A stretch of DNA of 64,000 bases from an uncultured Pseudomonadota bacterium (GTDB lineage: Bacteria; Desulfobacterota; Binatia; Binatales; Binataceae), in the NCBI GenBank assembly GCA_963837035.1, contig CAWIMH010000035.1, positions 341,770 to 405,769 on the forward strand, in the 5' to 3' direction. The stretch's first letter is position 1. Every line of letters starts with the position of its first letter. The position numbers and the translations under genes are program-made. Below the pieces are notes generated by a model. The model was not told the origin of the DNA. It was given only the letters and a program-made list of their open reading frames with translations, and did no database searches. Below are positions 669 through 23,555 of this stretch, piece by piece.

Positions 669-1946
669 TTAAAATTTCCAGATAACATGCAGGGCCAGGA
701 AGTTAAGGTAATTCGTTGAGAAATGCCCCTGCAGTGTTCCAGCAAGCGGCCCGCGGCGATTACTAAACGGTCCCGGGCCCGCATCGAGGAATTCCCACGC
801 GGCGCCAGCCGTTACATTACGATTGACCTCATACTGGATGCCGGTGCCGTATCTCAGCTGGCGATCAAAAGGAAGGACGGCATTACGGTTCGCTTTGGAA
901 ACTGGCGAACTGTCATACGCAAATCCTGCCGACCACAGCCACTTCTCAGCTAACCGAAATTGCTGCCCAATCGCAATCTGCCAAGTGTTCGAAAAATGCA
1001 GATTTGCATCGACCGTGCGCTGAGTTTGCGCTGAGATTCCAACCGGGAACTCTCCGAACTCCGTCCAGTTTTGCCAGCCGACGTTACCCATCAGGCTGAA
1101 GTTGGGTAGGACCTCGTAGACCGCGCTCGCCATCACCTGCTGGGGTTCCGTTAGAGGGACATTAAATTGTGCCCCGCCGATTCGTTTGCTGATCGCGCCG
1201 AGGCCCGGACCGAGATGGGTGAGATGCGGTTTGAACCCAAACTTGTAATACTCGGGTGACTGGTAGGTGAGCCCAATGCGTAGTTTCGGAATCGGCCTGA
1301 GCAATATGCCGGCCCTGCCACCGAACGCTTCGTCCCACGACTCGAGCGAGTAGCCACCATCCCCCAGGCGCGGAAGAGCGTTATTAACCTTTGATTGAAA
1401 CGTCAAGCGTCCGACCGCAAAGCTGAAACCCGCGCCCACTGATAGCCAGTCGTTTACCTCAAAAGCAATTGAGGGGGCGATCTTGCCAGTGAAAAGTGCT
1501 GCGCGGGTTATGTAATAGCGTCCGACCCATTCTTTGCCGTAGTTTCCGGCAAGACCGTAATCTGAATAGAGCGCCACGCCGAGCCACAGCCGCTCGGAAA
1601 ATTTGTGGGCATAGAAGAACGCCCCTATGGGCATAAACACCCCGGCGTTGCCGCCGCCACTGCCCTTGGTTGTCGTTTGTGGGGCGACGTTGAAGTTAAC
1701 CGAGGGCAGGAGTGCACCTGAGGCCCACATCAGTTGCGAGCGATCGAGCAGTGTCATGCCGGCGGGATTGGCAGCCGCAGTCGATGCATCCGCGGCCATT
1801 GCGGCTCGTCCCGCGCTCGCGGTCCCAAGATCAGGCGCACCCGTTTCGTAAAGCTCGAGGGCGGCGCCTCGCGCGGGCGTAACGAATGCCACGAGGACCA
1901 GTGCTGCGAGACACGTAGCTTGGTGAATTTTAGATGCTAGGCGCAT
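669..1946 (-). CDS. FadL/TodX-family outer-membrane transporter for hydrophobic compounds (long-chain fatty acid transport protein-like)
   Basis: 474-aa ORF. The likely true start is the internal Met (MRLASK...), which is followed by a hydrophobic signal peptide ending ARG-AA. The protein is Gly/aromatic-rich in a beta-barrel-like pattern with a C-terminal aromatic residue, typical of the FadL/TodX family. Family assignment is from recall of sequence character; no search was run. Confidence 0.65.
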   Translation of the reverse strand: MRLASKIHQATCLAALVLVAFVTPARGAALELYETGAPDLGTASAGRAAMAADASTAAANPAGMTLLDRSQLMWASGALLPSVNFNVAPQTTTKGSGGGNAGVFMPIGAFFYAHKFSERLWLGVALYSDYGLAGNYGKEWVGRYYITRAALFTGKIAPSIAFEVNDWLSVGAGFSFAVGRLTFQSKVNNALPRLGDGGYSLESWDEAFGGRAGILLRPIPKLRIGLTYQSPEYYKFGFKPHLTHLGPGLGAISKRIGGAQFNVPLTEPQQVMASAVYEVLPNFSLMGNVGWQNWTEFGEFPVGISAQTQRTVDANLHFSNTWQIAIGQQFRLAEKWLWSAGFAYDSSPVSKANRNAVLPFDRQLRYGTGIQYEVNRNVTAGAAWEFLDAGPGPFSNRRGPLAGTLQGHFSTNYLNFLALHVIWKF

Positions 1947-2171
1947 GGTTGCTCCAATTGCTCTGGAAAACGTTAGCGCCGATCCTGCTCCCGTGTCGCC
2001 GATCAATGGACGCACTGCGAACGCCGCGACCATCGCCGCCAGCAGTGCACTGTATCGGTGCGGCGCAAAATGCCGATGGATCGCCGTGCGCATTTCTTCC
2101 AGAGGGTATCTTCGTTTCAGTGCCCGCTGTTTGACTTCCGATTTAGCCTGGTCCCGGATTGGTCGTCGAGC

Positions 2172-3035
2172 TCAGTCACCGAAAAGATTCCCTTTGATGA
2201 GTTTCGGGATAACCGGCGTGATTGCGAATTGCAGATTCCATTTCTGGCCGAACACGTCAGGATGAACCGGCATGTACTGTCCCTGGACCTGCAGTTTCAC
2301 GGGTAGGGGGCCAATTTTTATCACCTTGCTGACATTCAGACCGACTGGAAAAGTGATCATGTTGGCGCTTTTATTCGCGTACCAGTTGACAAGGATATTC
2401 GGGGAGGTTCCGATTCCCCATCCGTCACCGGGGAGGTAGACGAAGAAGTACTGAATGTTCATCTGGCTTGTGGTCTGCGAGCCAGGCCCACCGACCGAGA
2501 ACCACTGCTGTGGGAATACGCCTCCCAGCCATTTTTCGCCCAAATAGCCAAGCACTCCTCCCGGACCTATTTGCCACTTGTTCTGGCCCAAACGTGAATT
2601 GCTTGCAGTGGGAAAGATGAAACTGGGTCCGGCTCCCAGCAGCCAAGGGCCTGATAGCTTCGGACTTGGTGAGATCAGCGTTGCGAGGATAGTGTCCCCA
2701 AATCCGGTGACGCGATGAAGATTGCCGCTCTTGTTCACGTACGGTGTCGAATTCATCACTTGGAAGACGGGACGAGTGATCAGATTCCAATCGTCGGTCA
2801 ACGCAAGAGGCAGAACGGGCTGAAACTGGAGGTTAACAACATTGCGCTCCGGTTTATCGAGCCAATAGGTATTTTCCTGAAGTTGGAGCGCCCAGATGCT
2901 CGAAATCGGGTTCGAGAGTTCCTTATTGACCTCGTCAAGCGATTTGCCGTCGGCCGTCTGCGCCGCGGCACGGGTGACCATGAGGAGGCCAAACACTCCG
3001 ATCAGGGTAATCATCCGTGCGTATCGGTGATTCAT
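2172..3035 (-). CDS. secreted outer-membrane beta-barrel-like protein of unknown function (possibly MetA-pathway/transporter-like OMP)
   Basis: 287-aa ORF with an N-terminal signal peptide (MNHRYARMITLIGVFGLLMVTRAAAQ). It has alternating hydrophobic, Gly-rich strands and a C-terminal aromatic (F-G-D). It lies on the same strand as, and adjacent to, the FadL-like gene. Confidence 0.4.
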   Translation of the reverse strand: MNHRYARMITLIGVFGLLMVTRAAAQTADGKSLDEVNKELSNPISSIWALQLQENTYWLDKPERNVVNLQFQPVLPLALTDDWNLITRPVFQVMNSTPYVNKSGNLHRVTGFGDTILATLISPSPKLSGPWLLGAGPSFIFPTASNSRLGQNKWQIGPGGVLGYLGEKWLGGVFPQQWFSVGGPGSQTTSQMNIQYFFVYLPGDGWGIGTSPNILVNWYANKSANMITFPVGLNVSKVIKIGPLPVKLQVQGQYMPVHPDVFGQKWNLQFAITPVIPKLIKGNLFGD

Positions 3036-3174
3036 GAAACCCGCTCTGAAAATCGCACGCGGACATCGTCACTCCGCCGACGCAAACCGCTGACCGCCAA
3101 CTGCGTTGCGTTCAACAACCTCAAGCCATTGACTCGATGCCATAGTGCGAACAGGCCAACAGTGGGAAACCCGA

Positions 3175-4200
3175 TCAACCAGGACTTGGCACCACGCGAT
3201 AGTAGATGCCGTTCGCACCATATGCCGGTTGGAACCACGTATTACCGCATAAGTAGTAGGTTATGCCCCCGATGCTGGGTTGTGCACACCCCGTTTTCGG
3301 CACCGTTGGATAGATTGCTCCCATCGCATAAGCAGTGTTGACGGTGCCAGCGGTATAGCCGGAGTTGTAAGCACTCGCAGCGGCTGCATTGTTGTTCGCA
3401 TTGGCCACTGTCGCCCCAACGGCCGCCCCGGCAACCGCACCGACCGCCAGGCCAGCGGCTCCCGCGGTGCTCCATCCCCCGCAATTGGAGCAACTGCTGC
3501 CGTAGTAGTTCACGGTCGTAGGTGGATGATAGGTGCTATAGCTGCCGCCATAGTAGGCGCCGGAGCTGTTGTAAGTAGTTGAGGCGTAATGATTAGTGGT
3601 GTTATAGGTGTTCCCGCCGTACGCGGATGTCGTCGGATAAGAGCCATAATGGCCAGCGGAGGTTGTCGCACCATACCCAGTCTTGCCGTACGCAGACTGG
3701 CCGTATTGGTTGGTCGCACCCCATGTACCGCTTCCACCGGCTGCGGAACCTCCGTTGGCACCGTGAGCGTTCCACGAACCCGCTCCACCCGAGGCAGTGC
3801 CGCCATTTGAAGTATGACCGTTCCAAGAGCCTTCCCCGCCCGACGCAGAGCCACCGCTGGCGCCGTGGGCGTTCCACGATCCACTTCCGCCCGATGCAGT
3901 ACCGCCGTTGCCAGAATGACCGCTCCACGAGCCACTTCCGCCCGAAGCGGAGCCGCCATGTCCGCCGCTTCCGCTCCACGAGCCACCACCACCAGATGCT
4001 GATCCACCGCCGGCTCCATGACCGCTCCACGAACCTCCTCCGCCCGAGGCTGATCCTCCGTAGGTTCCAGAATGGTTCCAGGAACCGCCCCCGCCCGATG
4101 AAGAGCCGCCATAGCGGCTCGCGTGCGACCAAGCAGCCGCCGGCCCATTCGAGAGCGCCAAAATCAGGAGGCCAACAAAACCGATGAAGCTGATTTTCAT
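3175..4200 (-). CDS. secreted Gly/Ser-rich repeat protein with Trp/His-containing 17-aa tandem repeats and a glycine-zipper hydrophobic segment
   Basis: 341 aa. Signal peptide MKISFIGFVGLLILALSNGPAAA. It has about 7 tandem repeats of the form SW[NS][GA]H[GST]xxGG[ST]ASGG[GSAE]G, followed by a Tyr/Thr/Asn-rich low-complexity region. Next comes GLAVGAVAGAAVGATVA (glycine-zipper-like), then a C-terminal tail with 4 Cys. The overlapping antisense ORFs (3510-4148, 3602-4270, 3627-4187) are repeat artifacts. Confidence 0.55.
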   Translation of the reverse strand: MKISFIGFVGLLILALSNGPAAAWSHASRYGGSSSGGGGSWNHSGTYGGSASGGGGSWSGHGAGGGSASGGGGSWSGSGGHGGSASGGSGSWSGHSGNGGTASGGSGSWNAHGASGGSASGGEGSWNGHTSNGGTASGGAGSWNAHGANGGSAAGGSGTWGATNQYGQSAYGKTGYGATTSAGHYGSYPTTSAYGGNTYNTTNHYASTTYNSSGAYYGGSYSTYHPPTTVNYYGSSCSNCGGWSTAGAAGLAVGAVAGAAVGATVANANNNAAAASAYNSGYTAGTVNTAYAMGAIYPTVPKTGCAQPSIGGITYYLCGNTWFQPAYGANGIYYRVVPSPG

Positions 4201-4212
4201 AGCAACGTCTCC

Positions 4213-5076
4213 TTAAGGAGTCGTCGAATGCTTGGCTCTTGGTGGTCGCTTCATACCCTGTTGTAACCACGAATCGGGGCGTGCGAACGCGATTCGCTTT
4301 GCGGCCGCTGCTTGAGTAGAAGAGAAGGCGTCCGCCGGGATCTCAGGATCGATCTTCCAGTCCGAGAGATCCAACTGGTTGCGTAGCCGCGAAGGATCGT
4401 CTCGAAACACGGCGCGGAGCATCCGGGGCAGCTTGTCTTCGGTACCGATCCATATCTGCAGGAACACGTTGTCGTTGACATACGCGACCATATCCGTGGT
4501 CGTTCCGCCGACCACAACAGATTGACCGATGTAAAACGCGACCCTTAGCCCCTCGGTAAGATCCTTGTACGGATCGCTGACGATCACGTCGCTGAATGGA
4601 AAATATATCGCGGCGGAGTGGTCGGCTTCCTCCAAGGTAGCGTCGATTGTGGGCGGCGCGGGCGCGATCGCGGCTAGATTCTCGATCGGGGCAAAGGCAG
4701 TCATGGTCTTGCCGTCATAATAGAACTCGGAGCGAGGACCGTCGCCGACCGTGATAACGCGAAGCTTGTCGGGCCGCATCATGGTGACCTCCGATTTGGT
4801 CGTGTAGGCAAGTGGGGGACCGAGCCGGCTAGGATTCTCGTAAGTGACCACCGCCGTGAACTGCATCGAGTGCGCGGCTGCCAAACGGGCGCATGCAGTC
4901 TTGAGAATATCGAGCGCCTTGGGCTCCAGGCTGGGAGCCGCGTTTTTACTCGACTCTTTGGTATGCTTGGAAGCCTGCGGCGGCGCTGGTTGCGGCTGCT
5001 GGGCATTCGCGGGCGCGGTCAGAAAAATACTCAACGTCAGCACCAGCGCGCTTCCTATCAGCTTGGATCGGAACAT
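4213..5076 (-). CDS. periplasmic protein, DUF2092/LolA-fold-like
   Basis: The likely start is the internal Met (MFRSKLIGSALVLTLSIFLTAPANAQQ), giving a signal peptide. The rest resembles DUF2092-type periplasmic proteins that are often encoded near outer-membrane genes. Confidence 0.45.
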   Translation of the reverse strand: MFRSKLIGSALVLTLSIFLTAPANAQQPQPAPPQASKHTKESSKNAAPSLEPKALDILKTACARLAAAHSMQFTAVVTYENPSRLGPPLAYTTKSEVTMMRPDKLRVITVGDGPRSEFYYDGKTMTAFAPIENLAAIAPAPPTIDATLEEADHSAAIYFPFSDVIVSDPYKDLTEGLRVAFYIGQSVVVGGTTTDMVAYVNDNVFLQIWIGTEDKLPRMLRAVFRDDPSRLRNQLDLSDWKIDPEIPADAFSSTQAAAAKRIAFARPDSWLQQGMKRPPRAKHSTTP

Positions 5077-5123
5077 CACCGCGAACGATGATGAACCAAA
5101 TGGAAGCGCTTCTCCTGCGGTGG

Positions 5124-5414
5124 TCATGGGAGCAGCCCGCATTCAAACATTTTGTTGGCGATCGGCGCTGCCACTCGATCGATGAAGGCCGCCCGCATCT
5201 GCGGATCGTCGCGCAAGAGTTGAATGGCTTCCTGTTCTCTCGGTGAATGCGGCTGGCCCCGCCGCTGCCACAACTGCTCGCACGAGGAATTCTGGTATTT
5301 TTGGACGACCTGGTCGGCGATCCGATCCATCACCGGATGCTGCTGCGCGCTGGCTACGCCCCCGGAGCCAAGCAGTGCGGACACAAAGGCCAATACGTAA
5401 ATACGCTTGTTCAT
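5124..5414 (-). CDS. small secreted protein, unknown function
   Basis: The internal Met start gives MNKRIYVLAFVSALLGSGGVASAQQ, a signal peptide. The mature protein is about 70 aa with 2 Cys. It overlaps the downstream gene by 19 nt on the same strand. Confidence 0.35.
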   Translation of the reverse strand: MNKRIYVLAFVSALLGSGGVASAQQHPVMDRIADQVVQKYQNSSCEQLWQRRGQPHSPREQEAIQLLRDDPQMRAAFIDRVAAPIANKMFECGLLP

Positions 5415-5512
5415 AGATTTATCCTGCTCTCGATTAAAGGTGCTCTGCGGGAGCAGCGAGCGAGCCCACCGGAAGGCACCCACCGTTAATTTCATTTCTC
5501 TTACTGGTCTAT

Positions 5513-7138
5513 TTACTGGCCAGTCCCTTTGCTCGCCGCCTCCGCCTCCGCCATCTTTTTCGCCATCTCAGCTTTCAACGCGTCAAGGTTGAAACTAGCC
5601 CCCCGCTGCATCGGCGGGTAATCGAGGAAGGTCTTGATTTCTTTGGCCATCAACTGCTGGACGAACACAAAGCGCCAGAACTGGTACTTGAACCAATCGA
5701 AGTATTGCTGCGCACCGTCTTTCGTTCCATTGCCGGGCCAGCCCGTGCGCTCGAAGGGATCCAGGCGCAGGTTGGTGATGTAGGGCACGTCCGGATGGGT
5801 CTTATCCCCGAGCCAGCCATTGGGCTGGTCGATGAAACGGTACTTATAGTCGTCAATGCGCACCGCGCCGATTGTGCTTTCGCCGAGGTAGAAGATTTCG
5901 TGGCGCGCGGACGGCCCTTTGCCGGTGATCGCAGCCATCTGGTTATAGCCGTCCAGATGGTTCCTGTAGGTTCGGTCGCCGATCGTCTTACCCTTCAGCA
6001 ATTCCTGGGTGATGTTCGGATTGCCCGCCGCTGCCACGAAGGTCGGAAGCCAGTCGAGGCCGGAAAAGATGCCGTTCTGCACCGAGTCCGGGGGGACGTG
6101 GCCGGGCCAGCGAAGGAGCGTGGGAACGCGGAAACCGCCCTCGAGGACTGTTCCCTTGGATTGCGCAAACGGCGTCTGACCGCCATCGGGCCAGGTGAAA
6201 ACTTCCGTGCCGTTGTCAGTCGTGAAGACCACGATGGTGTTGTCGTCGACCCCCATGTCCTTGAGTTTCTTCATAACGAGGCCGACATCATCATCGATCT
6301 GGGCCATGCCGGCTTCCTCTTCCGACCAGCCATTCTCCGAGTTCCGCATCGCTTCGTATTTTGGGGAGAGATGCGTGACGATGTGCATGCGGGTCGGGTT
6401 GAGCCAGACGAAGAACGGTTTGCCGTCCTTTTGGGCCTTGTCCATAAACTTGATGGCGAGGTCGCGAATCTCGTCGTCCACGGTTTCCATCCGTTTCGGA
6501 TAGAGCGTGCCGGCATCCTCGATCTTCTGCTTGCCGATCCTGCCCCAGCGCGGCATCTCGGTGGGGTCATCCTTGTCAGTGGCCCAGCTATGAACCATGT
6601 TGCGCGGGCCGACGACATTCAACAGGTTCTGCGGATAGTTGGGGTGTGCCGGATCTTCCATCGCATCGAGGTGATACAAATAGCCGAAAAATTCGTCGAA
6701 GCCGTGGACGGTGGGCAGGAACTCATTGCGATCGCCAAGGTGATTCTTGCCGAACTGGCCCGTGGCATAGCCCATGGACTTAAGCACCGTGGCGATGGTC
6801 ACCGCTTCCGCCGGTATGCCGATCTTGGCACCAGCTTGGCCGACTGTGGTCATACCCGTGCGGATCGGGAGCTCGCCAGTGATGAAGTTCGCCCGACCCG
6901 CCGTACAGCTTGCCTCGGCGTAGTAGTCGGTGAACAGCATGCCCTCCTTGGCGATCTTGTCGAGGTTCGGCGTCCTGCCAGCCATCATGCCGCGATGATA
7001 GGCCCCGATATTCCACATGCCGATGTCGTCGCCCATGATCACGACGATGTTGGGTTTCTTCTCTTGCGCCTGCGCCCCGCGTGTGAGCGACAAACCGATG
7101 ATCGCGCAGATCGACAAGGCGACGCCGAAATGTCTCAT
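5513..7138 (-). CDS. arylsulfatase (type I sulfatase) with signal peptide
   Basis: Strong sulfatase hallmarks are present: KPNIVVIMGDDIG, the FGE-target motif S-C-T-A-G-R (the C-x-A-x-R variant of CxPxR) followed by ANFITG, GKNHLGD, and the C-terminal sulfatase domain. Starting at MRHFGVALSICAIIGLSLTRGAQA gives a signal peptide. The antisense 536-aa ORF (5705-7315) is rejected. Confidence 0.85.
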   Translation of the reverse strand: MRHFGVALSICAIIGLSLTRGAQAQEKKPNIVVIMGDDIGMWNIGAYHRGMMAGRTPNLDKIAKEGMLFTDYYAEASCTAGRANFITGELPIRTGMTTVGQAGAKIGIPAEAVTIATVLKSMGYATGQFGKNHLGDRNEFLPTVHGFDEFFGYLYHLDAMEDPAHPNYPQNLLNVVGPRNMVHSWATDKDDPTEMPRWGRIGKQKIEDAGTLYPKRMETVDDEIRDLAIKFMDKAQKDGKPFFVWLNPTRMHIVTHLSPKYEAMRNSENGWSEEEAGMAQIDDDVGLVMKKLKDMGVDDNTIVVFTTDNGTEVFTWPDGGQTPFAQSKGTVLEGGFRVPTLLRWPGHVPPDSVQNGIFSGLDWLPTFVAAAGNPNITQELLKGKTIGDRTYRNHLDGYNQMAAITGKGPSARHEIFYLGESTIGAVRIDDYKYRFIDQPNGWLGDKTHPDVPYITNLRLDPFERTGWPGNGTKDGAQQYFDWFKYQFWRFVFVQQLMAKEIKTFLDYPPMQRGASFNLDALKAEMAKKMAEAEAASKGTGQ

Positions 7139-7190
7139 TTTCCAACTAGGCATTGGAACTCGCCTCCCGGATTCAGTGTGTCCGCCTTTC

Positions 7191-7955
7191 TCAATTGGCG
7201 GCGGCTGCCGCGCTCTGCTGAACGCCAAAGCTCACCAGCTTTTGGTCGAGTCCATTGGCCCAGTAGTCGATGGCGTTTTCAGCATCACCCCACTGAAACA
7301 CGTCGACGTTCTTGATCGACGTGCCGCCAACTCGTTTGTCCGCCCAGGCCGCAAGCAATTGTCCGGAAACCGAATCGTTCAGCTTCCCGGCACCCTGCGC
7401 CGAACCTACGAATGCGTACGTGCCAGTCGCCGCCATCTTTATCGCACTGAGCACGCGGGCTTGTGGTACCACCACCGAAATGCTTCGCAGTACCGGGACG
7501 GCTGAGGTGGCGTCGGTCAAAGCGACGGAGAGTTTCATCACACCCGGACCAGGTTGATCCACGATCGTGAAGTTCTTCCCGAGATCCTTCACAAGGGTGC
7601 TGTACATATAGTTGCAAAGCGCCTGTTGATCAGCGGCGGAGACCTTGGAATCGTCCGCGGCCCAAAAAGTGACCGGAGCGATCATGATCTTGTTGTAGCT
7701 GGACCAGGTCACATTCGGGTTGACGTACCGGAGCATAGCCTTTTGGTCGGACCCTTCCGCAGGCGGCGTCATCAGAGAGTAGTCATTGCCGAGAAACCCG
7801 CTGGGCGCCGGCGGAGCCGGGGTTTCGCCTTGCGCTCGCTGGATAAGGTTCGGCTCGGGAGCCGCGGTTTGTGAACATCCGGCCAATAGGAATCCGGCAA
7901 GTAGAATAGGCACCAGACCGCTGGCAAACTTCATGCTTGCGATTTTGTGATTCAT
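7191..7955 (-). CDS. DUF3313-type lipoprotein
   Basis: Start at MNHKIASMKFASGLVPILLAGFLLAGC, giving a lipobox L-A-G-C. A GGAGG ribosome-binding site lies 5 nt upstream of this ATG. The size and composition fit the DUF3313 lipoprotein family. Confidence 0.5.
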   Translation of the reverse strand: MNHKIASMKFASGLVPILLAGFLLAGCSQTAAPEPNLIQRAQGETPAPPAPSGFLGNDYSLMTPPAEGSDQKAMLRYVNPNVTWSSYNKIMIAPVTFWAADDSKVSAADQQALCNYMYSTLVKDLGKNFTIVDQPGPGVMKLSVALTDATSAVPVLRSISVVVPQARVLSAIKMAATGTYAFVGSAQGAGKLNDSVSGQLLAAWADKRVGGTSIKNVDVFQWGDAENAIDYWANGLDQKLVSFGVQQSAAAAAN

Positions 7956-8047
7956 CTTCTCCTCCAATTGCTTTGTCTCTTTGATATTTAATTCTGAGGG
8001 CTTCTTTCGGACTATTCGGCTTTCGCGAGATCGGAACCTCGGTCAAA

Positions 8048-9445
8048 CTAAAGTTGTGGGCCTTCCTGGAGTGTCCAGCCATTCGCGGACAGCTGCTGGC
8101 GCGCGAGCGGTGTCATTTTGCCGGTGATCCAAAGAACGCGATGGTGCAAGGCCATCAACTCGGGAGCGGTCGCAAAACCTGCTATTCGCTGCGTCCACGA
8201 CACATAGTCGACGGGAGCCGGCATTATCGTCGCGCCATTCTGATCGCGCGCAACCAGCACACCGGGTACCCGAATCCTGGTAATCGGACTCCTCTGCCGG
8301 TTCCATTGGTCGAGCATGCTAAGTGACGTAACCATGAAACGCGCCTGGTACTCCGTCATCATGCTGCCCAGCGCAACCGCCGCAGCACGGCGTCCCGGAA
8401 TGTTGCCGAGAGCGTCGAGATCTCTGACCGCGGAAACCTGCAGACTCAACGGAATCGCGCTATTACTGATGAAAGAGGTGATCTCCTCCTGCGACAGCCC
8501 GATGTTCTTCAGTTTCTTCTGAACGAGAAGGATGAGGTCGGCTTTCGGTGTCTGATAGACGAGATCGTCGCTGAACTCGACGCCCGTGATGATCATCGAC
8601 GCGGGTACCGCCATCATTGCGACATCAACCGTCATACGAGCCGAGAACATCACCCACGCAACTTTGTTCAGCCTCTTGGTGAGAATCGGATCGGAAGTGT
8701 AGGGATCGACGTGTAACTTCCGAGCGAGGTCGCGACGGACCTGATCGTAGCCCAAGGCCGTTAGCGTAGCAGTGCCAGTCTCACCGGCGGCTTTTCCACT
8801 CCCGGGAGAACTCGTAGCCGCCGAGTAGATCTCTCCCGCCCCGAGACTCACCCGGCCAAACAATTCGCCGACTCCGCTGGGCAACCCGGTCACGGTGTCC
8901 ATCGGATGTCTTACCATGTTTGCAGCGTCTGTTACCGGGCGCTCGGCACTCGAGGCCAGCGCTTTGGCGAATACGCCGGTCTCACTAATGTTTTCCAACT
9001 GCGCGATCGCTGGTATCTCGGACAGGCGTATCTTCAGCATATCGAGACTTTCGATGTAGTAGGTGCCGGCGTCGCCGCGAAATACCGATGCGTCGGCTAC
9101 TATGGTGTATTGGCCCATCGCACCGTTGGTCGCCACTTGTTGCCCCACCTGATAGCCGGGACCGGATTGTATGTCCGGCGACAGAAGTTGACTAAGGTCC
9201 ACAATCGGCGGTTCCTCGAATTGACCGGTGGTTGCCCAACCCGAGGGCGGCTGAGCCGGTTGCGGTGCAACACTCTCGCCCTGAGCTGCGCCGGACGGTG
9301 GCGGCGCCGGATTACCGGTCTGTGCTTGCGCCATTTGAGGCGTCGCGGGTGCGGACGATTGGGCGCACCCCGCCAGCAGTAATCCGGCGATCAAAAAAGC
9401 CCGTGTTGCGATCCATCCTTTCAGACACCTCGAACTGAGACCCAT
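8048..9445 (-). CDS. lipoprotein, unknown function (465 aa)
   Basis: MGLSSRCLKGWIATRAFLIAGLLLAGC gives a lipobox. It is followed by a Pro/Ala/Gln-rich linker and then a globular domain. It is the first gene of the minus-strand cluster that ends with the FadL-like gene. Confidence 0.5.
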   Translation of the reverse strand: MGLSSRCLKGWIATRAFLIAGLLLAGCAQSSAPATPQMAQAQTGNPAPPPSGAAQGESVAPQPAQPPSGWATTGQFEEPPIVDLSQLLSPDIQSGPGYQVGQQVATNGAMGQYTIVADASVFRGDAGTYYIESLDMLKIRLSEIPAIAQLENISETGVFAKALASSAERPVTDAANMVRHPMDTVTGLPSGVGELFGRVSLGAGEIYSAATSSPGSGKAAGETGTATLTALGYDQVRRDLARKLHVDPYTSDPILTKRLNKVAWVMFSARMTVDVAMMAVPASMIITGVEFSDDLVYQTPKADLILLVQKKLKNIGLSQEEITSFISNSAIPLSLQVSAVRDLDALGNIPGRRAAAVALGSMMTEYQARFMVTSLSMLDQWNRQRSPITRIRVPGVLVARDQNGATIMPAPVDYVSWTQRIAGFATAPELMALHHRVLWITGKMTPLARQQLSANGWTLQEGPQL

Positions 9446-9602
9446 ATGTTCCTCGAAATTTTGTCGTTCGATGTGCGCGGCCGTGCGAGTGCTGCCGCGT
9501 CAACCACCGAGTTCGCCCGCGGTGCGATTAACTCAAAGCCGCGCCGGCGTCTCCACTTCGTCTTTGCGCGAGTATGATTTATCGTTTTTGACAGTGAGGG
9601 AT

Positions 9603-9620
9603 ATTGTACGTTGGTACAAT
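9603..9620. promoter_or_regulatory. 18-bp palindromic candidate operator ATTGTACgTTGGTACAAT in the divergent intergenic region
   Basis: A perfect 7-bp inverted repeat, ATTGTAC/GTACAAT, around a 4-nt spacer. It lies about 160 nt upstream of the lipoprotein-sulfatase operon (minus strand) and 90 nt upstream of the receiver gene (plus strand). A 17/18-identical copy occurs at 17933-17950. Confidence 0.4.
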
Positions 9621-9709
9621 GGCTGAATGATCGCGCATCGCGCAGAATGTATACCAGTCAATGATGCGAATGATTTGAGAACCTTCACTCGCGGAGCAGG
9701 TATCGTTAG

Positions 9710-10096
9710 TTGTGGGAAAAGTCGACGGCCACAGTAATTGTGGTAGATGACGACGTATCCATCCGCCGCGCCCTGGGACGTCAGTTGCAGATTCTGGGCT
9801 TCGACGTATTGGTCTTTCAGAGCGCGGAAGAGCTGCTGGTCTCCGAGCTACCTATTAATAACACTTGCCTACTGTTGGACGTCTATATGCCGGGAATGAG
9901 CGGGATTGAGCTCTGCCAGAGTTTGGTGGCGTCAGGACGGCACTTGCCGACGATCCTGATGAGCGGCCGTGACGACGAGGCAACGAGAGAAATCATGCGC
10001 CAAGCAAAACCGATCGCCGGCTTATTCAAGCCATTCGATCAGAAAACCCTGCTACAAGCGATCCGAAGGGCATTGCGCAATTTGCGAAAGAGCTGA
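9710..10096 (+). CDS. stand-alone response-regulator receiver protein (CheY-like)
   Basis: 128 aa. It has the VVDDD acidic pocket, the LLLDVYMPGMSG phospho-acceptor region and a conserved K near the C-terminus. There is no output domain. Confidence 0.75.
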   Translation: MWEKSTATVIVVDDDVSIRRALGRQLQILGFDVLVFQSAEELLVSELPINNTCLLLDVYMPGMSGIELCQSLVASGRHLPTILMSGRDDEATREIMRQAKPIAGLFKPFDQKTLLQAIRRALRNLRKS

Positions 10097-10237: not shown

Positions 10238-11675
10238 ATGATGTCCACGGCCCCGCATTCCGCGGGCCAATCCCGGCCTGTTGCTGGGTATTGCCAACTG
10301 GCCGGGTACACGCATTCTCTGATGCGACCAGCAACAGCTGCAAAACTGACCCCACCACTTCTCCGTGCTCGAAGCTTGCGTGGAATCCGTCCACGGCGCG
10401 AAATTGAGCGCTTCGAATTGCTGTTGGACGAATTGTCGGCGGTGATGACCCGGACTCCTGCCGATGCGAGTCGACGGCGAAATCGAAACCTGGCTGGGCA
10501 AGATTTGCCAGGCCTTGGGGTTGGATCGCAGCGGCATCTATGAGCGTGATTCGCCGCTCGATCCCGTGCGCACTACGCATACCTGGAAGCGGCCAAATAT
10601 TCCTCCATTTCCTCGGGATTTCGATCCGGAGAAGTATCTAAAGACGACTACCGACTGGGTTATGGCGGGTAATCAGATTGTGTTCTCGTCGCCGAGCGGA
10701 ATTCCGGCCGAGCTGGCAGGATGCAAGACGCTTCGTCGAGCGATATCGGCCCCAAGGCTTCCGCCGTCATTCCGATGTGGGCCGGAAATCGAGTGATCGG
10801 CGCGGCGAGCTTTGGCAAGTTCCGCGCAGCGCGGGAATGGCCGCCAAAACTCCTCGAACAACTCACTCTCGCGGTCAGGCTCTTCGGCAGCGCGATTGAA
10901 CGCAAGCAGGCAGAGGCGGAGCGCCGCGCAACTCTTGCGCAGCTGCGGACCGCGTCGCGTCGCAACATGATGAGCGAACTCGTCGCCTCACTTTCACATG
11001 AAATCAACCAGCCTCTGGGTGCGATCCTGAGCAACCTGGGAGGTCTCGCGCGGTTGCTCTCGCGGAAAAATCCGGAACCCGCGATGGCCCTTGCTGCGGT
11101 CAACAACGCGATTGAGGATACCAAACGGGCTGCTGAAATCATTCGACGAATCCGTTTCATGTTCAAGGCTCATCCTGAACACAAAACAGCAGTCAGTATT
11201 GGCGCGTTGGCTGACGAAGTGGTGAACTTGATCGCTAGCGAGGCAGCGCTCCGTAAAGTTGAAGTGCTCCTGGAAGTTTCGCCCGCCGTCAAGCGCGTAA
11301 TCGGAGATCGCATTCAGCTGCAGCAATGCTTACTGAATCTGCTCATGAATGGCTTTCGACGCGATCACCGAGAGCAAGTCCGACCAGCGCGAGATAACGA
11401 TCAAAATCGCCCCGGAGAAGCCCGGATGGGTCGGCTTCAGCGTGAGCGATACCGGTGGTGGCATCGACCCTTCGGTCGCCGACCGACTATTCGAACCGTT
11501 TGTTACAACCAAAAGCAATGGTATGGGATTGGGCTTGCTCGTGACCCGATCGATCGTCGAGAATCACGGCGGCAAGATCTGGGCGACGCCGAATCCCGAT
11601 GGCGGAACCACGTTCACCTTCACGCTTCCTTTGGTGCAAAGAAAGCAAGCCAGCGCATCGAAGCGCGGCAATTGA
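10238..11675 (+). pseudogene. sensor histidine kinase (GAF-like, HisKA, HATPase_c) interrupted by at least 3 frameshifts
   Basis: Three overlapping ORFs in different frames read as one protein: an N-terminal region, a GAF-like region (IPMWAGNRVIGAASFGKF), HisKA (LSHEINQPL), and HATPase_c split at LLNLLMNG|AFDAITES. The HATPase_c split is explained by one extra g (aatggcttt versus expected aatgctttc). Confidence 0.6.
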
Positions 11676-11686
11676 CGGCCTGCCGG

Positions 11687-12330
11687 TTAATTTGACCCGC
11701 CTTGAGCGAATCGCGTGGGCGTGGAATTCTCAAGGATTCCAGACATGCGGACGAGACCGGCGAGCGAGTCGGCCTTCATTTTGATCATTACGCGTTCGCG
11801 ATGTGCCTTAACCGTACGCTCCGTGGTTCCCAACTCGGCTCCCACCTGCTTGTTCAACAGACCCCTCGTGATTAGAGCGAAGACTTCGCGTTCGCGAGGG
11901 GTAAGCGCATCCAAGCGACTTTCGAGCTCGATCCGCTGGGCATGCTCGGCACGCCGCTTACGCGATTAGTTCGGCGCCACGAATTATCGAACTCACGAAA
12001 GCTTCTTCGTCGAGCGGCTTTTCAAGAAAATCCACCGCGCCCTTTCTCATCGCATGCATTCCGAGCGACAGATCGCCGTGGCCGCTGATGAACACGATTG
12101 ATGCGAATGGAACCGTGCGGTACAGCTTCGCCTGAAGCTGCAACCCGTTCATTCTCGGCAGAAAATTGTCCACCACGATACAATCAAAGGCGCTTGCGTC
12201 AGTGACATTGAGAAATTCTTCAGCAGAGTCTATGTGGGGCGACCTGAAAGCCTGCAGCACCGAGCTGGAAGACCAACGCTTGCGCGCAACCGCTCGTCGT
12301 CTTCAACGAGCGCCACCTTGATGGCCTCGT
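11687..12330 (-). pseudogene. FixJ/NarL-type response regulator (receiver plus LuxR-type HTH) with 2 frameshifts
   Basis: The receiver N-terminus (IKVALVEDDERLRASV), the receiver core (DCIVVDNFLPRMNGLQL...SGHGD...KGAVDFLEKP) and the LuxR HTH ([12 protein letters not shown]...[19 protein letters not shown]) lie in three different frames. Removing one base near 11958 restores ...[27 protein letters not shown]. Confidence 0.6.
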
Positions 12331-12840
12331 TGGTCGCGCGAGCGTTAGCATCCTGGACGATTCTTTTTCCCGCCGCGTCGAAATCGAACAGGTGTGTTTG
12401 CAGTGACGCATCGGCACCGCCCCCCGAGACATTCGCCGCTGCGAGAGTTGGCAAAACTATAGCCATCGCTCACGGAATCGAGCAAATGGACCTTGGTTCT
12501 CTGCGGCACAAATTTGGACTCCGGTACAAAGGCTCGCACATAGGATGTCGGCATATCGTGGCCTGATTGCATGCTTGGCGCGATGGGACAGATCTCGATA
12601 CTTCTTCGCTGTGACTGTTATACCAGTGGATTTCGAAAATCATTTTTCAAGAGCTGACCGTTGAGCAAGAAGAAAAGGCCCCGGAGCGAGCAGCCGACCT
12701 CCAGTGGAAACAGACGGAAACCGGAGCTGATGCAACGGCCCGGGTGCTACGACAGGCGCATCCTGAACTCCGGATCCTCGCTTGGCTGTTCCCCGTAGCG
12801 ATGCTCGATCATCCTGGCCGTCGCACTCTCGGGACGATCG

Positions 12841-15108
12841 ATGCGTGAGCCCATTCGTCCCGTAATTGCTTCGAAACAATCCCCCGTCCTTAGAGCGAAG
12901 TTCGTGGGATCCGCTGACTGCGCGACCTGTCACGAGCGCGAGAATTCCCTATGGCGTGGCTCGCATCATCAATTGGCGATGCAACCTGCTGCGAATTCCA
13001 CGGTCTTGGGCGATTTCAACAACGCGAGCTTCAGCAACGATGGGATCACTTCAACCTTTTTTCGAAGGGACTCCAAGTTCATGGTCCGCACCGACGGTCC
13101 CGACGGAGCCCTTCAGGGATTACGAAATCAAGTACACGTTTGGCGTCTCACCACTGCAGCAATATCTGATCGCCATGCCGGGCGGACGCTTGCAGGCGCT
13201 AGGAATCGCATGGGACAGCCGCCGGCGCGAGCACGGTGGTCAGCGTTGGTTCTTTCTCTATCCAGGCCAGAGAATCTCGTTTTTACATCCGTTGCACTGG
13301 ACCGGTATCGATCAGACCTGGAACTTCATGTGTGCGGACTGCCATTCGACCAACGTGCGCAAGAACTACGAACCGCGGACGCGTACTTATGCCACCAGCT
13401 ATGCCGAGATCGACGTAGCCTGCGAGGCTTGTCACGGTCCCGGATCGAATCACGACTCGTGGGCGCGGAAGCAAGGCGATTGGCGAAACTTTCGAGATCC
13501 AACCACGGACTGACTATCGCGCTTGACGAACGCAACGGAGTGTCGTGGCCGGTCGACTCCGCCGGCAACACCGTCCACCGTAGCAGGCCGCGCGAATCTG
13601 AACGGGAAATCCAGATGTGCGCGCGATGCCATTCGCGTCGCGGTGAGATTTACGAAGAATACGTCCACGGCCAACCTGTCGGCGACGACTATCGCGTCGC
13701 GCTGCTCGATCAAGACCTCTATTTTCCTGACGGCCAGATCAAGGGAGAAGTTTATGAATACGGCTCATTCGTCCAGAGCAGGATGTTCCATGCTGGGGTA
13801 ACCTGCAGCGATTGCCACGAACCACATAGCCTCAAACTCCGAGCCGATGGCAATAATGTCTGTCTGCAATGCCATTCCGCTCCAAAGTACGATTCAGCGA
13901 AGCATCACTTCCACCAAAAGGGGATCGCCCGGCGCGCAATGCGTCGAATGTCATATGCCGACGCGGACCTACATGGTCATTGATGCGCGACATGATCACA
14001 GCCTCCGCATTCCTCGTCCCGACCTGTCAGTGAAGCTCGGTACGCCCAACGCGTGCACCAATTGCCACAAGGATAAGTCCGCCCAATGGGCCTCGGATTC
14101 CGTGGACAAATGGTACGGGGGCGTACCAGTCGGCTTTCAGCATTTCGCTGTGGCGCTTGACTCGGGAATCCAGCAGGCGCCGGGTGCCCGGCAATCGCTC
14201 ACCGACCTCCTCGCCGATCGCGATCAGCCTGCAATCGCCCGCGCCACCGCCCTTTCAATGCTCGCCGCCTACGCTCCTTATCCGGCCGATGCTACCGTTC
14301 GCGCCGGAATCACGGACGCTTCGCCACTCGTTAGACGTGCCGCCGCTCGAGCGCTTTCGAACTCCGACCTCGCCACCGGCGCATCGATTCTGGCGCCGCT
14401 TCTGAGCGATCCATGCGCTCGGTTCGAATAGAACTTGCCGAGGTGCTCGCCGGCGTGTCTGCGGACATGCTCCCCACCAACGTCGCACAGTCGTTGGATC
14501 GCGCTACAGATGAGTACATCGCCGCTCAGGAATTGAACACCGATCGACCCGAAGCACATATGAATCTGGGGTTGCTCTACGCGCGGGAAAAGCACCTAGA
14601 CCAGGCCGAGGCGGAGCTCAAAAGCGCGTTGTCACTCGACCCAGCTTTTGCACCCGCGGCGGTCAACCTCGCCGACCTTTATCGCGCGCAGAACCGGGAT
14701 GCTGAAGGTGAACAGATCCTCGATGATGCTATCAATCGTTCGCCCAACGACGGGTCACTGCAACACGCGCTCGGTCTGTTGATGGTGCGCCAGAAGCAGG
14801 GCCGAAAAGCTTTAGCTCTATTCGCTGCCGCCGCACAACTCGATCCCGCGAACGCGAGATACGCATATGTATACGCAGTCGCTCTGAATGACACCGGCCA
14901 GACCAGCACTGCAATTGAAACACTCGAGCGCAATCTCAAACTGCATCCTTATGATCGCGATTCACTCACCGCACTGGTTAGCCTTTGCGATCGGGTTGGC
15001 AAATCACTGGAGGCGCTCAGCTATGCCCAACGCCTCTATGAACTTGATCCGGAGGACTTGCAAGTGCGGCAGATGCTCAAAGCGCTGAACGGCCAGATTC
15101 ACAACTGA
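12841..15108 (+). pseudogene. multiheme cytochrome c domain fused to C-terminal TPR repeats, at least 4 frameshifts
   Basis: Several CxxCH heme motifs are present (CATCH, CADCH, CEACH, CARCH, CSDCH, CLQCH, CVECH, CTNCH). They are spread over 3 frames (ORFs 12841-13983, 12866-13513, 13847-14431). These are followed by TPR repeats in ORF 14413-15108. The architecture matches the cytochrome-c-family-plus-TPR proteins common in Acidobacteria and Deltaproteobacteria. Confidence 0.55.
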
Positions 15109-15167: not shown

Positions 15168-15743
15168 TCAACTCCGCCCGTTCCCTACGGTAATGTTCGA
15201 GTGGCGCCCCGAAACACCGCCAGTTTTGGGGGCTCCGAAAAAGAGTCTCCATAGCTCCCCCTCGCCCATGCGCCCGCTGATCTCGAACAACGCGAAGTAT
15301 AGTGCAAACACTAGAGTGATTCCCAAGACCCAAGCGAGAAGTCGATACATATTCGCCTGGGCAATCACGTATTGTGCCGCCGCGTCGAAATTATGCACCT
15401 TATGTCTGGCTTCCAGAAGTCGTTCCAAAATGCCCAGCAACAGTGTGATAGCGCCATAAATCAGGGCCTTAACTGCGACTGCGACAATCCGGCGATAGTG
15501 CTCAAGGTGGCGGGCGAGCGGCGTCTCATCGAGTATAAGCACCGCTTTTGCGGCAAACAGAGCTCCGATCACAGCCTTGGGAAATGCCGTTACCTCGATG
15601 GAGAAGGTTGCAAGGACCAGCCTTATGATCCAAAGCAAGAGCAGGAAGCCGACCAGGAAAAATACAAATACCGGCCAAGCCGCAACGAACTCACGGTAGA
15701 GCCATCTGCCGACCGCGCGAATTGTGCGCAGGACACTGTCCAA
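15168..15743 (-). CDS. integral membrane protein, unknown function
   Basis: 191 aa with about 4 predicted TM helices. It lies immediately downstream of, and co-oriented with, sulfatase paralog 2. Confidence 0.4.
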   Translation of the reverse strand: MDSVLRTIRAVGRWLYREFVAAWPVFVFFLVGFLLLLWIIRLVLATFSIEVTAFPKAVIGALFAAKAVLILDETPLARHLEHYRRIVAVAVKALIYGAITLLLGILERLLEARHKVHNFDAAAQYVIAQANMYRLLAWVLGITLVFALYFALFEISGRMGEGELWRLFFGAPKTGGVSGRHSNITVGNGRS

Positions 15744-15777
15744 CGTGTTTCCTCTTAATGCGCGACTAAAACCGCCG

Positions 15778-17280
15778 CTAGTGGCTACCGCCCTGCTGTT
15801 GAAGCTTTTCCATCACCTGGTCGATGGTAAAGCTGGCTGCTTTCTGGCGCGGCGGGTACTCCACGAACGTCTTCAGAAAATTTGCCACGAGGCTCTGGGC
15901 GGGCAGAAACATGTAGATGTGATTGATTACCCAATCCCAATAGGTATTCGAAGTAATATCTGCGCGCTCGTACGGGTCCGTGCGCAGATTGAAAAGCTTT
16001 GGAAACCGTAAGGGCACAAGTGGCTCCTGCCAGATTTGCAGCGTGCCTGGTACCCGCTGCTCCATGAAAATTAACTTCCAATTGTCATAGCGCAAGGCCA
16101 TCAGGTCGCCATCATCGGAGAAGTAGAAGTATTCGATGCGCGGACTTGTTTCCTTGCCCCTGAAGTGCGGCAGATAATTGTAACCGTCGAGATGCACCTT
16201 AAAACTCTTCTTGCCCGCCTGATGCCCCTTTAGCAGTTTCTCCTTGATACCGGGCTCGCCCGCGGCAGCCAGCAGAGTGGGGAGCCAGTCCAGATGACTG
16301 ATTATTTCGTTCGATACGGTTCCGGGTTTGATTACACCCGGCCAGCGGACCATGCATGGCACGCGAAATGCGCCTTCCCAGTTGGAATTTTTCTCGTTCC
16401 GGAAGGGTGTCATTCCGGCGTCTGGCCAGGAGTTCATGTGCGGACCGTTGTCAGTGCTGTACATGACGACGGTGTTGTCGGCGATGCCGAGGTCATCGAG
16501 CTTTTTGAGGAGTTTGCCGACGATCTGGTCGTGCTCGATCATGACGTCATGATATTCGGACTGCCAGCGACCCGCCTGGCCCACGATTTCGGGCTTGGCG
16601 TGGGTGCGGAAGTGCATATGGGAGGTGTTGAACCAAACGAAGAAGGGCAGGTTCGCTTTCACCTGCCGCTCGACAAAATCCTCAGTTTTAGCGATGACCT
16701 CGTCGTCGATCGTGCGCATCCGTTCTTTGCCCAGAGGGCCTGTGTCGACAATCAACTGAGTTCCGTCGGGATTGGCCTTGCAGTCAAGCACACCGCGCGG
16801 GCCGAAGTTTTTCTTGAAGTTGGGATAGTCGGAGGCGGGCGGATAGTCGGGGAGCTCCGGCTCCTCCATAGCGTTAAGGTGATAGAGGAAGCCGAAGAAC
16901 TCGTCGAAGCCGTGGCTGGTCGGCAGGAATTCGTCCCTGTCTCCGAAATGGTTCTTGCCGAACTGCCCGGTAGCGTAGCCAAGCGGCTTGAGCAATTCAG
17001 CGATGGTCGGATCCTCCGGGCGCAGACCCAGGTCAGCTCCGGGCACTCCGACCTTGCTTAATCCAGTCCGAAAGACGCTCTGACCGGTAATGAACGCCGA
17101 TCGGCCAGCGGTGCAACTTTGCTCGCCGTAGCTGTCGGTGAACAGGATCCCCTCCGTCGCGACTCGATCGATATTTGGCGTCCGATAGCCCATCATCCCT
17201 TTCGTGAAGATGCTGAGGTTCGCGGTGCCGATGTCGTCACCCCAGATGATCAGAATGTTCGGGTTTTTGTTCGCCGCCAT
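15778..17280 (-). CDS. arylsulfatase paralog (type I sulfatase) lacking a signal peptide
   Basis: It has NPNILIIWGDDIG, SCTAGRSAFITG (the same C-x-A-x-R variant), GKNHFGD and a sulfatase C-terminal domain. It is about 60% identical by eye to the 5513-7138 sulfatase over the N-terminal 140 aa. Neither possible start (MKWYLARETQ... at 17376 or MAANKNP at 17280) gives a hydrophobic signal peptide. Confidence 0.8.
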   Translation of the reverse strand: MAANKNPNILIIWGDDIGTANLSIFTKGMMGYRTPNIDRVATEGILFTDSYGEQSCTAGRSAFITGQSVFRTGLSKVGVPGADLGLRPEDPTIAELLKPLGYATGQFGKNHFGDRDEFLPTSHGFDEFFGFLYHLNAMEEPELPDYPPASDYPNFKKNFGPRGVLDCKANPDGTQLIVDTGPLGKERMRTIDDEVIAKTEDFVERQVKANLPFFVWFNTSHMHFRTHAKPEIVGQAGRWQSEYHDVMIEHDQIVGKLLKKLDDLGIADNTVVMYSTDNGPHMNSWPDAGMTPFRNEKNSNWEGAFRVPCMVRWPGVIKPGTVSNEIISHLDWLPTLLAAAGEPGIKEKLLKGHQAGKKSFKVHLDGYNYLPHFRGKETSPRIEYFYFSDDGDLMALRYDNWKLIFMEQRVPGTLQIWQEPLVPLRFPKLFNLRTDPYERADITSNTYWDWVINHIYMFLPAQSLVANFLKTFVEYPPRQKAASFTIDQVMEKLQQQGGSH

Positions 17281-17372
17281 TGCCTTTCCCTTTTTTAGAA
17301 GCCTTTTCGGCTTGCATTGATCAAGATTGTTAAAATTCGAGGCGGATTGTGTTTCCCTTGCAAGATACCACT

Positions 17373-17762
17373 TCAATTACAGCCGTGACTGTTTGCGGTC
17401 TTGTAACAATTTTTGCCGCTGGGGCTCTTATATACGCCCTTGCCATTCTTGGTCTTGGCTTCTCCTCCCGCGCTCGTGTGCATCGTAATAACTCCATACT
17501 GATTCTTCTGTGAATGCCAAGCGTTGCCAGTATTGCGGTTATATACCCCGGCTTGTTCCCCGTTGTTGCACTCGACGCGGCCATATGCGGTTGTGTAGCA
17601 ACTAGCAAACGCGTCGGTAGAAAACAGCACCACTGTGAATATTCGCAGAGCGATTCTTTTTACTATCCTATGCCGAGATTTTCGATTTGGATCTCGAGTC
17701 AGCCTGCGCTGCAGCGAGGTTTTCAAAACACAAACAAACGTGGTCGTCAGAGGCACACACAA
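17373..17762 (-). CDS. small secreted Cys-containing protein (about 76-aa mature), unknown function
   Basis: The ORF ends 1 nt before the sulfatase-2 ORF. The internal segment KRIALRIFTVVLFSTDAFA|S looks like a signal peptide. The mature part has Cys pairs at both termini (CYTTAYGRVEC ... CYKTANSHGC). The true start is uncertain; a TTG or GTG start is possible. Confidence 0.35.
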   Translation of the reverse strand: MCVPLTTTFVCVLKTSLQRRLTRDPNRKSRHRIVKRIALRIFTVVLFSTDAFASCYTTAYGRVECNNGEQAGVYNRNTGNAWHSQKNQYGVITMHTSAGGEAKTKNGKGVYKSPSGKNCYKTANSHGCN

Positions 17763-17932
17763 CTTTTGCTGATAGCCTTCATCTAAAAACTTCAGTTGGA
17801 GGTAGCCGGCGATCGTCGGTGACCTATTTTCTGCATGGTCGCTTCGTGGTCCGAGCTAGCGCCAGCGAATGGTTCGGTAGGTACGCTGCTGCGCCCTGCT
17901 CCGAGACTGCTCCATTCGTATCAGCAATAACT

Positions 17933-23484: not shown

Positions 23485-23555
23485 CATCTGGTTTTCTTTC
23501 GCCAACTCTTTCGCAATGAATTTTTGCGGCAAGCGGTGTGCTGTTTGGTCGTGAG

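Follow-up and report, generated by a model that had tools for sequence, protein, structure and literature searches.

Two near-identical 18-bp palindromes stand upstream of two sulfatase gene modules in a 64,000-nucleotide stretch of DNA from an uncultured soil bacterium of the family Binataceae (class Binatia; assembly GCA_963837035.1, contig CAWIMH010000035.1, positions 341,770–405,769 of the forward strand). They raise the question of which regulator reads them and what that regulator does to the promoters beside them. Below, "the window" denotes this whole stretch, and coordinates count from its first letter. Binatia are uncultured, and we know of nothing that has been established about their gene regulation. 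Our analysis suggests, with a probability of roughly 0.75, that the palindromes are the sites of a LuxR/FixJ-type response regulator encoded nearby (11711–12416), with a GAF-domain kinase (10319–11669) as its partner. The motif is real, strongly conserved and attached to promoters, keeps a fixed distance to -10-like hexamers, and is linked to genes for regulators whose recognition helix reads ERTVKAH. The arrangement is a conventional kind of gene switch and involves no new type of mechanism.

Two matching palindromes in the window

Site 1 (9603–9620, ATTGTACGTTGGTACAAT) lies between operon 1 on the minus strand and an orphan receiver gene on the plus strand, and site 2 (17933–17950, ATTGTACCTTGGTACAAT) lies upstream of the gene for a small Cys-rich protein and the sulfatase-2 module to which it belongs. 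The two sites are identical at 17 of 18 bases, as an earlier note on this DNA had reported, and both are perfect inverted repeats, as it had also stated. Site 1 has 7-bp arms around a 4-nt centre, and site 2 has 8-bp arms that extend to 10 bp when the flanks are counted (CTATTGTACC TT GGTACAATAG, a 10+2+10 layout). A search of the window with up to three mismatches found no third copy (0.04 expected), and the observed copy count was reached in none of 100 shuffles of the window. The earlier statement that the 64 kb contain no other full copy is therefore upheld, with the refinement that two degenerate copies (12485–12502 and 12513–12530, minus strand) occur upstream of a response-regulator gene. 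The 200 nt surrounding sites 1 and 2 cannot be aligned in a pairwise comparison, which indicates that the sites are not pieces of a longer repeat and removes the earlier concern that they might belong to a mobile sequence.

Site 1 is 158 nt from the ATG at 9445 that opens the first gene of operon 1, which encodes a 465-aa protein, and site 2 is 171 nt from the TTG at 17762 of the small Cys-rich gene. The distance of about 160–170 nt given before holds for these annotated starts, but the true start of the Cys-rich gene may be nearer 17660, which would place it about 270 nt from site 2. Each of the two minus-strand gene strings encodes a PF00884 sulfatase, and the two sulfatases share 45% identity, in agreement with the paralogy proposed earlier.

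Conservation of the palindrome in relatives

Conservation was followed in two samples, in which individual loci carry an L and a number. Sample (a) was a collection-wide scan for the exact pattern with one genome per species, which gave at least 119 loci and site counts that are lower bounds. Sample (b) consisted of 80 metagenome loci picked by similarity to the 465-aa protein alone, 70 of them with enough upstream DNA. In 40 of these 70, the exact 18-mer precedes the orthologous gene by 50–215 nt and is oriented as in the window. A further five hold a site with one or two mismatches, and about 14 hold dyad-symmetric variants in which both arms are altered together (for example GGGACTTTGGTCC, GTCGTACTTTAGTACGAC and ATGGCACCTTGGTGCTAT). 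The GnAC...GTnC core is retained in all variants.

Sample (a) contains at least 37 usable exact sites in about 32 Binatia loci, and 15 or more Binatia species genomes hold the exact 18-mer at the orthologous position; across all phyla of the collection, chance matches to the 17-base pattern would be expected to number only in the tens. Among species with about 70% identical proteins, 17 of the 18 bases are kept, and the intergenic DNA outside a few boxes is far less conserved than the palindrome. The comparative footprinting for which the earlier note had called thus finds the motif upstream of orthologous operons. Nor are the occurrences scattered at random with respect to genes: they are associated with promoters, and within contigs they group on adjoining 8-kb chunks. 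Open frames at the sites are shorter than at random positions (median 136 versus 384 codons), a blunt and weak control that measures from stop to stop and so lets frames run upstream of true start codons.

Promoter geometry of the sites

On both sides of each palindrome, -10-like hexamers are found at nearly constant distances. At site 1, CAGAAT (9643–9648, plus strand) lies 22 nt to the right as the predicted promoter of the receiver gene, with a start predicted near 9655, and AATCAT (box A; 9574–9579, minus strand) lies 23 nt to the left as the predicted promoter of operon 1. At site 2, TAAGCT (17973–17978, plus strand) lies 22 nt to the right with no convincing gene downstream, and CAGTCT (17904–17909, minus strand) lies 23 nt to the left as the predicted promoter of the Cys-rich gene and sulfatase 2; the box A-like AGACTGCTCCATT at this site resembles AAGACTGATCCATT of L065. 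In the alignment of relatives, the right box reads cAnAaT and begins 24 nt after the site, with its A.A.T positions present in 29–35 of 37 orthologous sites. The left box reads AgAtTCgTCC (GAaTcT on the opposite strand) and begins 23 nt from the site. Both boxes are common to orthologous and non-orthologous sites, and in relatives with an operon start codon as little as about 63 nt from the site, no conserved -10-like element other than the left box fits.

A blind count, made at every offset, of hexamers with A in position 2, T in position 6 and four or more of 6 matches gave the same spacing. The Binatia peak is at a 23-nt spacer, with 37 of 95 promoter sides and 8 more at 22 nt, and the peak in other phyla is at a 22-nt spacer, with 31 of 66 sides and 7 more at 21 nt; the background is mostly 0–5 per offset. 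The intergenic region of site 1 contains no canonical -35/-10 pair. The palindrome ends where the -35 hexamer would start, and its centre is about 32 bp upstream of the first -10 base. A position just upstream of the -35 is the usual one for response regulators that recruit RNA polymerase. The fixed -10 spacing and the missing -35 are the features of an activator-dependent sigma-70 promoter, here with starts predicted at about 9655 (plus strand), 9567 (minus), 17985 (plus) and 17897 (minus). From the constant 22–23 nt to the -10 hexamers and the lack of a -35, we infer an activator site rather than an operator. The word "operator" used earlier, which implies repression, would not suit an element whose geometry fits an activator site 22–23 bp upstream of a -10, probably in both directions.

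The promoter of the response-regulator gene (12456–12530, minus strand) carries the degenerate sites TTTGTACCGGAGTCCAAA (12513–12530) and AGAGAACCAAGGTCCATT (12485–12502), followed by a 23-nt spacer and the -10 hexamer TATAGT (12456–12461). In about 18 species it reads ATG(C/T)GACCAAAGTCCAAT, 23 nt, TACTAT, about 45 nt, GGGAGG and ATG. This order of a site, 23 nt, a good -10 and a normal ribosome-binding site identifies the right-hand box of the other sites as a -10. Directly upstream of the regulator-promoter site, L122 (~6395–6420), L131, L185, L102 and L145 have a second palindrome of the type TTGTTCC-N4-GGAACAA, which may be the site of another regulator. Other promoter assignments were dismissed: a sigma-54 promoter (TGGCAC-N5-TTGC) was set aside by eye, as its GG and spacing are unfit, and TTGTAC or TACAAT would serve as a -35 only with spacers of 12 or 23 nt.

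Candidate regulator of the palindrome

The orphan receiver gene (9710–10096, plus strand) had been named earlier as the obvious candidate regulator. Its product is a FixJ-like receiver domain only, with all phospho-acceptor residues and no helix-turn-helix in Pfam and NCBIfam searches; lacking an output domain, it cannot be the DNA binder. In our view, its gene is among the targets of the site, and the protein probably modulates the pathway. The better candidate is likely the FixJ/StyR-like response regulator with a GerE helix-turn-helix (11711–12416, minus strand), which is encoded 2 kb from site 1 and 1.6 kb beyond the orphan receiver. This gene was recovered by tblastn and was overlooked in the first reading because it is split in the window, by three frameshifts. 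Between the two, the sensor histidine kinase gene (10319–11669, plus strand) encodes a GAF-HisKA-HATPase protein with a FixL-like kinase core; it contains at least one frameshift, and its open reading frame (ORF) begins only at 10721.

Against solved structures, the regulator matches StyR (7e-43), FixJ (2e-36) and DevR (2e-12), and its best NCBIfam model is FixJ, with a score below the curated cut-off of that model. The ERTVKAH sequence in the recognition helix of the Binatia regulator is absent from the PDB matches shown, in which StyR has EVTVKVH, EL222 has EKTVKMH and FixJ has PRTVEVH. The regulator is linked to the motif by conserved synteny, by the degenerate site in its own promoter and by a pairing of helix and motif across phyla. 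In L122 and L123, the operon is divergent from the orphan receiver and kinase genes, which are accompanied by an opposite-strand GerE regulator gene and a multihaem cytochrome c-TPR gene, and the window shares this layout. At 11 loci outside Binatia, a GerE helix-turn-helix gene ends 58–230 nt from an exact 18-mer (6 Gammaproteobacteria, 1 Sulfurospirillum, 3 Acidobacteriota/Aminicenantes-like and 1 Syntrophomonadaceae). The recognition helix contains ERTVKAH at 10 of them and IRTVKAH at the Syntrophomonadaceae locus (L083). Three loci (L030, L097 and L017) repeat the Binatia cassette of a regulator, a site and a single receiver. The window itself holds a linked cognate GerE regulator gene, in a frameshifted copy.

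At many non-orthologous places, the exact 18-mer also precedes, by 50–105 nt, genes for giant LapA-like adhesins that carry an N-terminal retention module. These places are found in Campylobacter (concisus group; L016, L022–L025, L036, L063, L076, L103 and L114), in Gammaproteobacteria (Thiodiazotropha/Sedimenticola; L004, L008, L009, L031, L039, L069 and L075) and in Smithella (L033, L071, L089 and L105). In the Smithella loci, the site lies between the adhesin gene and a gene that by eye looks like LapG, a transglutaminase-like protease. The gammaproteobacterial adhesin loci have, immediately upstream, a gene for a regulator that combines a VpsT/CsgD-like N-terminal domain with an ERTVKAH helix.

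Comparison with known GerE-type systems

The palindrome has the core of a site for a GerE dimer, with C at -3 and G at +3. In its palindrome, the C-terminal dimer of DevR makes contact with one GGGACT per half, and Dev boxes are found between divergent promoters such as narK2-Rv1738, which they serve (PMC3177182). Similar to the Dev box of Mycobacterium tuberculosis DevR/DosR, the Binatia motif is a palindrome for a GerE-type dimer with a GnACT-W-W-AGTnC core and the same half-site spacing; the variant GGGACTTTGGTCC is almost a Dev box, and GAF domains are found in the kinase partners of both systems. In contrast, the main Binatia form has T at two G positions (TTGTAC, not GGGAC), the Binatia regulator is far closer to StyR and FixJ than to DevR, and its kinase combines HisKA with a FixL-like core. 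DevR depends on two or more tandem boxes, whereas the Binatia promoters are mostly single-site. A DevR/DosR regulon, which is recognised by a DevR orthologue, the Dev box GGGACTTTAGTCCC and tandem boxes, does not describe the locus.

The T-box of Vibrio cholerae VpsT has the consensus WRCYWWRGYW with a key C at -3 and G at +3, and an adjacent box enables VpsT to activate a promoter whose -35 is poor (PMC8754643). The common centre of the motif, TACTTTGGTA, matches this consensus at 10 of 10 positions, as does the centre of site 2 (TACCTTGGTA); the centre of site 1 (TACGTTGGTA) matches at 9 of 10. In Gammaproteobacteria, the 18-mer adjoins genes for regulators with a VpsT/CsgD-like N-terminal domain. 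However, the Binatia site is far sharper, with 18 conserved bases, and the Binatia regulator has a canonical phospho-accepting FixJ-type receiver and the ERTVKAH helix.

The closest solved homologue of the candidate regulator is StyR of the Pseudomonas fluorescens StyS/StyR system, whose dimer, once phosphorylated, activates transcription from a high-affinity site (STY2) about 40 bp ahead of the start and has additional weaker sites (PMC2442086). That system differs in site sequence, in sensor kinase and in its regulon (styrene catabolism), and no element like its IHF-dependent upstream element is evident in the window. In the FixLJ-FixT pathway of Caulobacter crescentus, a single-domain receiver induced by the pathway inhibits the kinase (PMC7078487; bioRxiv 10.1101/2024.02.05.579008). 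The Binatia locus likewise combines a FixJ-type regulator with a single-domain receiver, whose gene lies behind the strongest site, and by analogy the orphan receiver could play a FixT-like feedback role, although FixT is induced through FixK and not directly. The motif itself was not found in any bacterial context in the literature searched.

Genes downstream of the sites

Among the Binatia sites listed, all lie upstream of gene starts. The gene most consistently downstream is that of the orphan receiver, which follows the site at about +90 nt in at least 16 genome loci. Small secreted protein genes followed by DUF2092 adjoin at least about 7 sites, and PqiA, followed by PqiA and an MCE-domain gene (MlaD family, PqiB-like), adjoins at least 5. 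Other adjacent genes encode two kinds of sulfatase, DUF3313, DUF4410, a bestrophin-like protein and a metallophosphoesterase. The two modules of the window belong to one recurring gene set of exported and envelope proteins. The earlier idea of a small sulfatase regulon under one dimeric regulator is thus retained in part: a shared site for a dimeric regulator and a regulon with both sulfatase modules are supported, but the set is wider than sulfatases, as it extends to PqiA, DUF2092, DUF3313, DUF4410, bestrophin-like, metallophosphoesterase, small secreted protein and signalling genes.

At the PqiA sites of L090, L079 and L061, the left box AGATTCGCCGATTG is kept, and the gene to the left encodes a 363-aa permease-like protein in co-directional orientation. 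In L078, whose flanks are unlike the Binatia module, three copies of an element of about 90 nt occur within 8 kb (936–953, 1234–1251 and 7679–7696). Each has a perfect 18-mer, 4 nt and a degenerate second copy, ATTGTACTTTGGTGAAGG.

Operon 1 (669–9445, minus strand) is intact and is conserved in L001, L002, L122 and L123. It begins with the 465-aa lipoprotein, which has no Pfam or NCBIfam family match and hundreds of homologues at 65–80% identity (the one with a named source is assigned to Candidatus Binataceae), and continues with DUF3313, sulfatase 1 (5513–7138), a small secreted protein, DUF2092, a repeat protein, a MetA-pathway-like outer-membrane protein and a FadL-like outer-membrane protein. 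The small secreted protein is the 123-aa ORF at 5124–5495 and owns a separate site in other genomes. The 341-aa ORF at 3175–4200, which is without a Pfam family, contains 6–7 tandem 51-nt (17-aa) repeats at 3734–4110. Module 2 (15168–17762, minus strand) comprises the small Cys-rich secreted protein, sulfatase 2 (15778–17280) and a 191-aa membrane protein. Orthologues of sulfatase 2 and the 191-aa membrane protein lie within the main operon in L001, L002 and L133, and sulfatase-2 orthologues adjoin a site of their own in L113 and L171; no palindrome was seen upstream of the homologue of the Cys-rich gene in L002.

Other features of the window

The region to the right of site 2 (17951–19166) contains no convincing gene by tblastx against all loci or by Rfam. 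Within this gene-poor stretch of lower GC, a 17-bp tandem repeat (GCGGTGGTTTATGCCAT, about 8 copies) occupies 18352–18504, and the 213-aa ORF that covers it is probably no real gene. A minus-strand string at 23023–25243 encodes a universal stress protein, DUF1634, a TauE/SafE sulfite exporter and an ArsR-family regulator and lacks the 18-mer. At 43525–43611 there is a tRNA-Leu(CAA) gene, and a 51-nt copy of its 3´ part (92% identical) at 29737–29787 adjoins a split phage-type integrase gene (30001–30990). Together these features resemble an integrated island of about 14 kb, now decayed, with attachment-site repeats at its ends. Two nearly identical repeats of about 75 nt, with internal hairpins such as CTCTCGC-TCATG-GCGAGAG, occur at gene ends at 46294–46367 and 52969–53043.

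Alternative explanations

A repressor operator would also place a palindrome in these regions, since the plus strand contains an extended -10 (TGGTACAAT) inside the palindrome, at which a bound dimeric repressor would block RNA polymerase. The plus strand reads TGnTAcAAT at both window copies, most Binatia sites have a gene downstream in this direction, and StyR-type regulators can repress from secondary sites (PMC2442086). However, the asymmetric centre is flipped relative to the downstream gene at L030, L097, L017, the PqiA site of L002, the regulator promoter and the operon itself, no -35 element is found at the right distance from TACAAT, and a separate -10-like hexamer is kept at 22–23 nt across phyla, all of which make repression from the palindrome unlikely. 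It is quite improbable that the binder belongs to another family, such as CRP/FNR, and that the LuxR/FixJ linkage is a coincidence of neighbourhood. The 6-4-6 layout does recall CRP/FNR sites, the local FixJ-type regulator gene is disrupted, and a CRP/FNR-like gene begins 45 nt from the site in L098; this is the only locus examined with a CRP homologue, and the window has none. The half-site differs from TTGAT-N4-ATCAA and TGTGA-N6-TCACA, the centre of the palindrome fits the VpsT and DevR cores, and at least four other lineages have GerE genes with the same helix beside the identical 18-mer.

The palindrome could act in RNA, as a 5´-leader hairpin, a processing site or a terminator, given that a perfect stem of 7–10 bp is possible, that variants such as GGGACTTTGGTCC alter both arms together and that a terminator scan flags site 2 on the minus strand. 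Such a role would preserve pairing, whereas here the sequence itself is kept, with 17 of 18 bases at about 70% protein identity, and one-sided variants yield T-C or G-A mismatches and no G-U pairs. The regulator-promoter site is kept in about 18 species with only 5 of 7 stem pairs (G-A and C-C mismatches). Together with the position between divergent genes with -10-like boxes facing outward, the absence of an Rfam match and the fact that site 1 is not flagged as a terminator, this leaves an RNA element with very little probability. A chance match, or a dispersed mobile repeat without a regulatory role of the repetitive extragenic palindromic (REP) or miniature inverted-repeat transposable element (MITE) kind, is effectively refuted. 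Its one favourable observation is the triplicated element of about 90 nt in the non-Binatia-like L078, against which stand the 0.04 copies expected per window, the unrelated flanks, the orthologous position across dozens of species, the promoter-proximal location of all sites and their occurrence in shorter open frames than random positions.

Several observations weigh against activation by the FixJ-type regulator as we propose it. Box A, in its GAATCT-like form, is a poor -10 and matches the consensus less well than the right hexamer. The left box is conserved even at PqiA sites that have no divergent gene, which a bidirectional model leaves unexplained. In Campylobacter and Smithella, no helix-turn-helix gene lies within the 8-kb chunk around the motif. 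A co-variation of helix-turn-helix and motif variants was set aside, as L162 has ATTGTAC-type and GTCGTAC-type sites with one regulator. In the window, about 8 frameshifts fall in 10319–15105, which covers the kinase, the FixJ-type regulator and the multihaem cytochrome c-TPR gene. The 9-kb operon 1 and the other flanking genes are intact, unlike this 4.8-kb stretch, and the frameshifts show no tie to homopolymer runs; this pattern suggests real decay of the sensing module in the source genome, with a local assembly fault as the alternative. The cognate system may thus be dead in this genome, in which case a paralogue may act at its sites, or they may be relics.

Model and implications

Taking the FixJ-type regulator as the binder, a phosphorylated dimer would occupy the palindrome beside the -35 position of a promoter without a -35 consensus and recruit RNA polymerase there. 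Because the site is symmetric and -10-like hexamers face outward on both sides, one dimer probably activates both divergent promoters. At site 1 the targets would be operon 1 to the left and the orphan receiver to the right, and at site 2 the leftward target would be the Cys-rich protein and sulfatase-2 module. The weaker site at the same distance from the regulator's own -10 suggests positive autoregulation. The induced orphan receiver would probably feed back on the kinase, as a phosphate sink or as a FixT-like inhibitor.

We propose, tentatively and at somewhat below even odds, that the 18-mer is a cross-phylum operator code for an uncharacterised ERTVKAH subfamily of GerE proteins, always 22–23 bp upstream of a -10, often bidirectional, and controlling cell-surface programmes. 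As part of this proposal, the subfamily may be FixJ-type in Binatia and Acidobacteriota and VpsT/CsgD-like in Gammaproteobacteria. Its targets may be giant LapA-like adhesins in Campylobacter, Thiodiazotropha and Smithella, and sulfatase, lipoprotein, outer-membrane-channel and PqiAB genes in Binatia.

For Binatia, the site offers a testable regulon of sulfatases, lipoproteins, FadL-type channels and PqiAB, together with a named candidate two-component system and predicted transcription starts. If the identical operator is indeed read by the same helix, one binding result would annotate promoters in many lineages, among them the giant-adhesin promoters of Campylobacter and of sulfur-oxidising symbionts.

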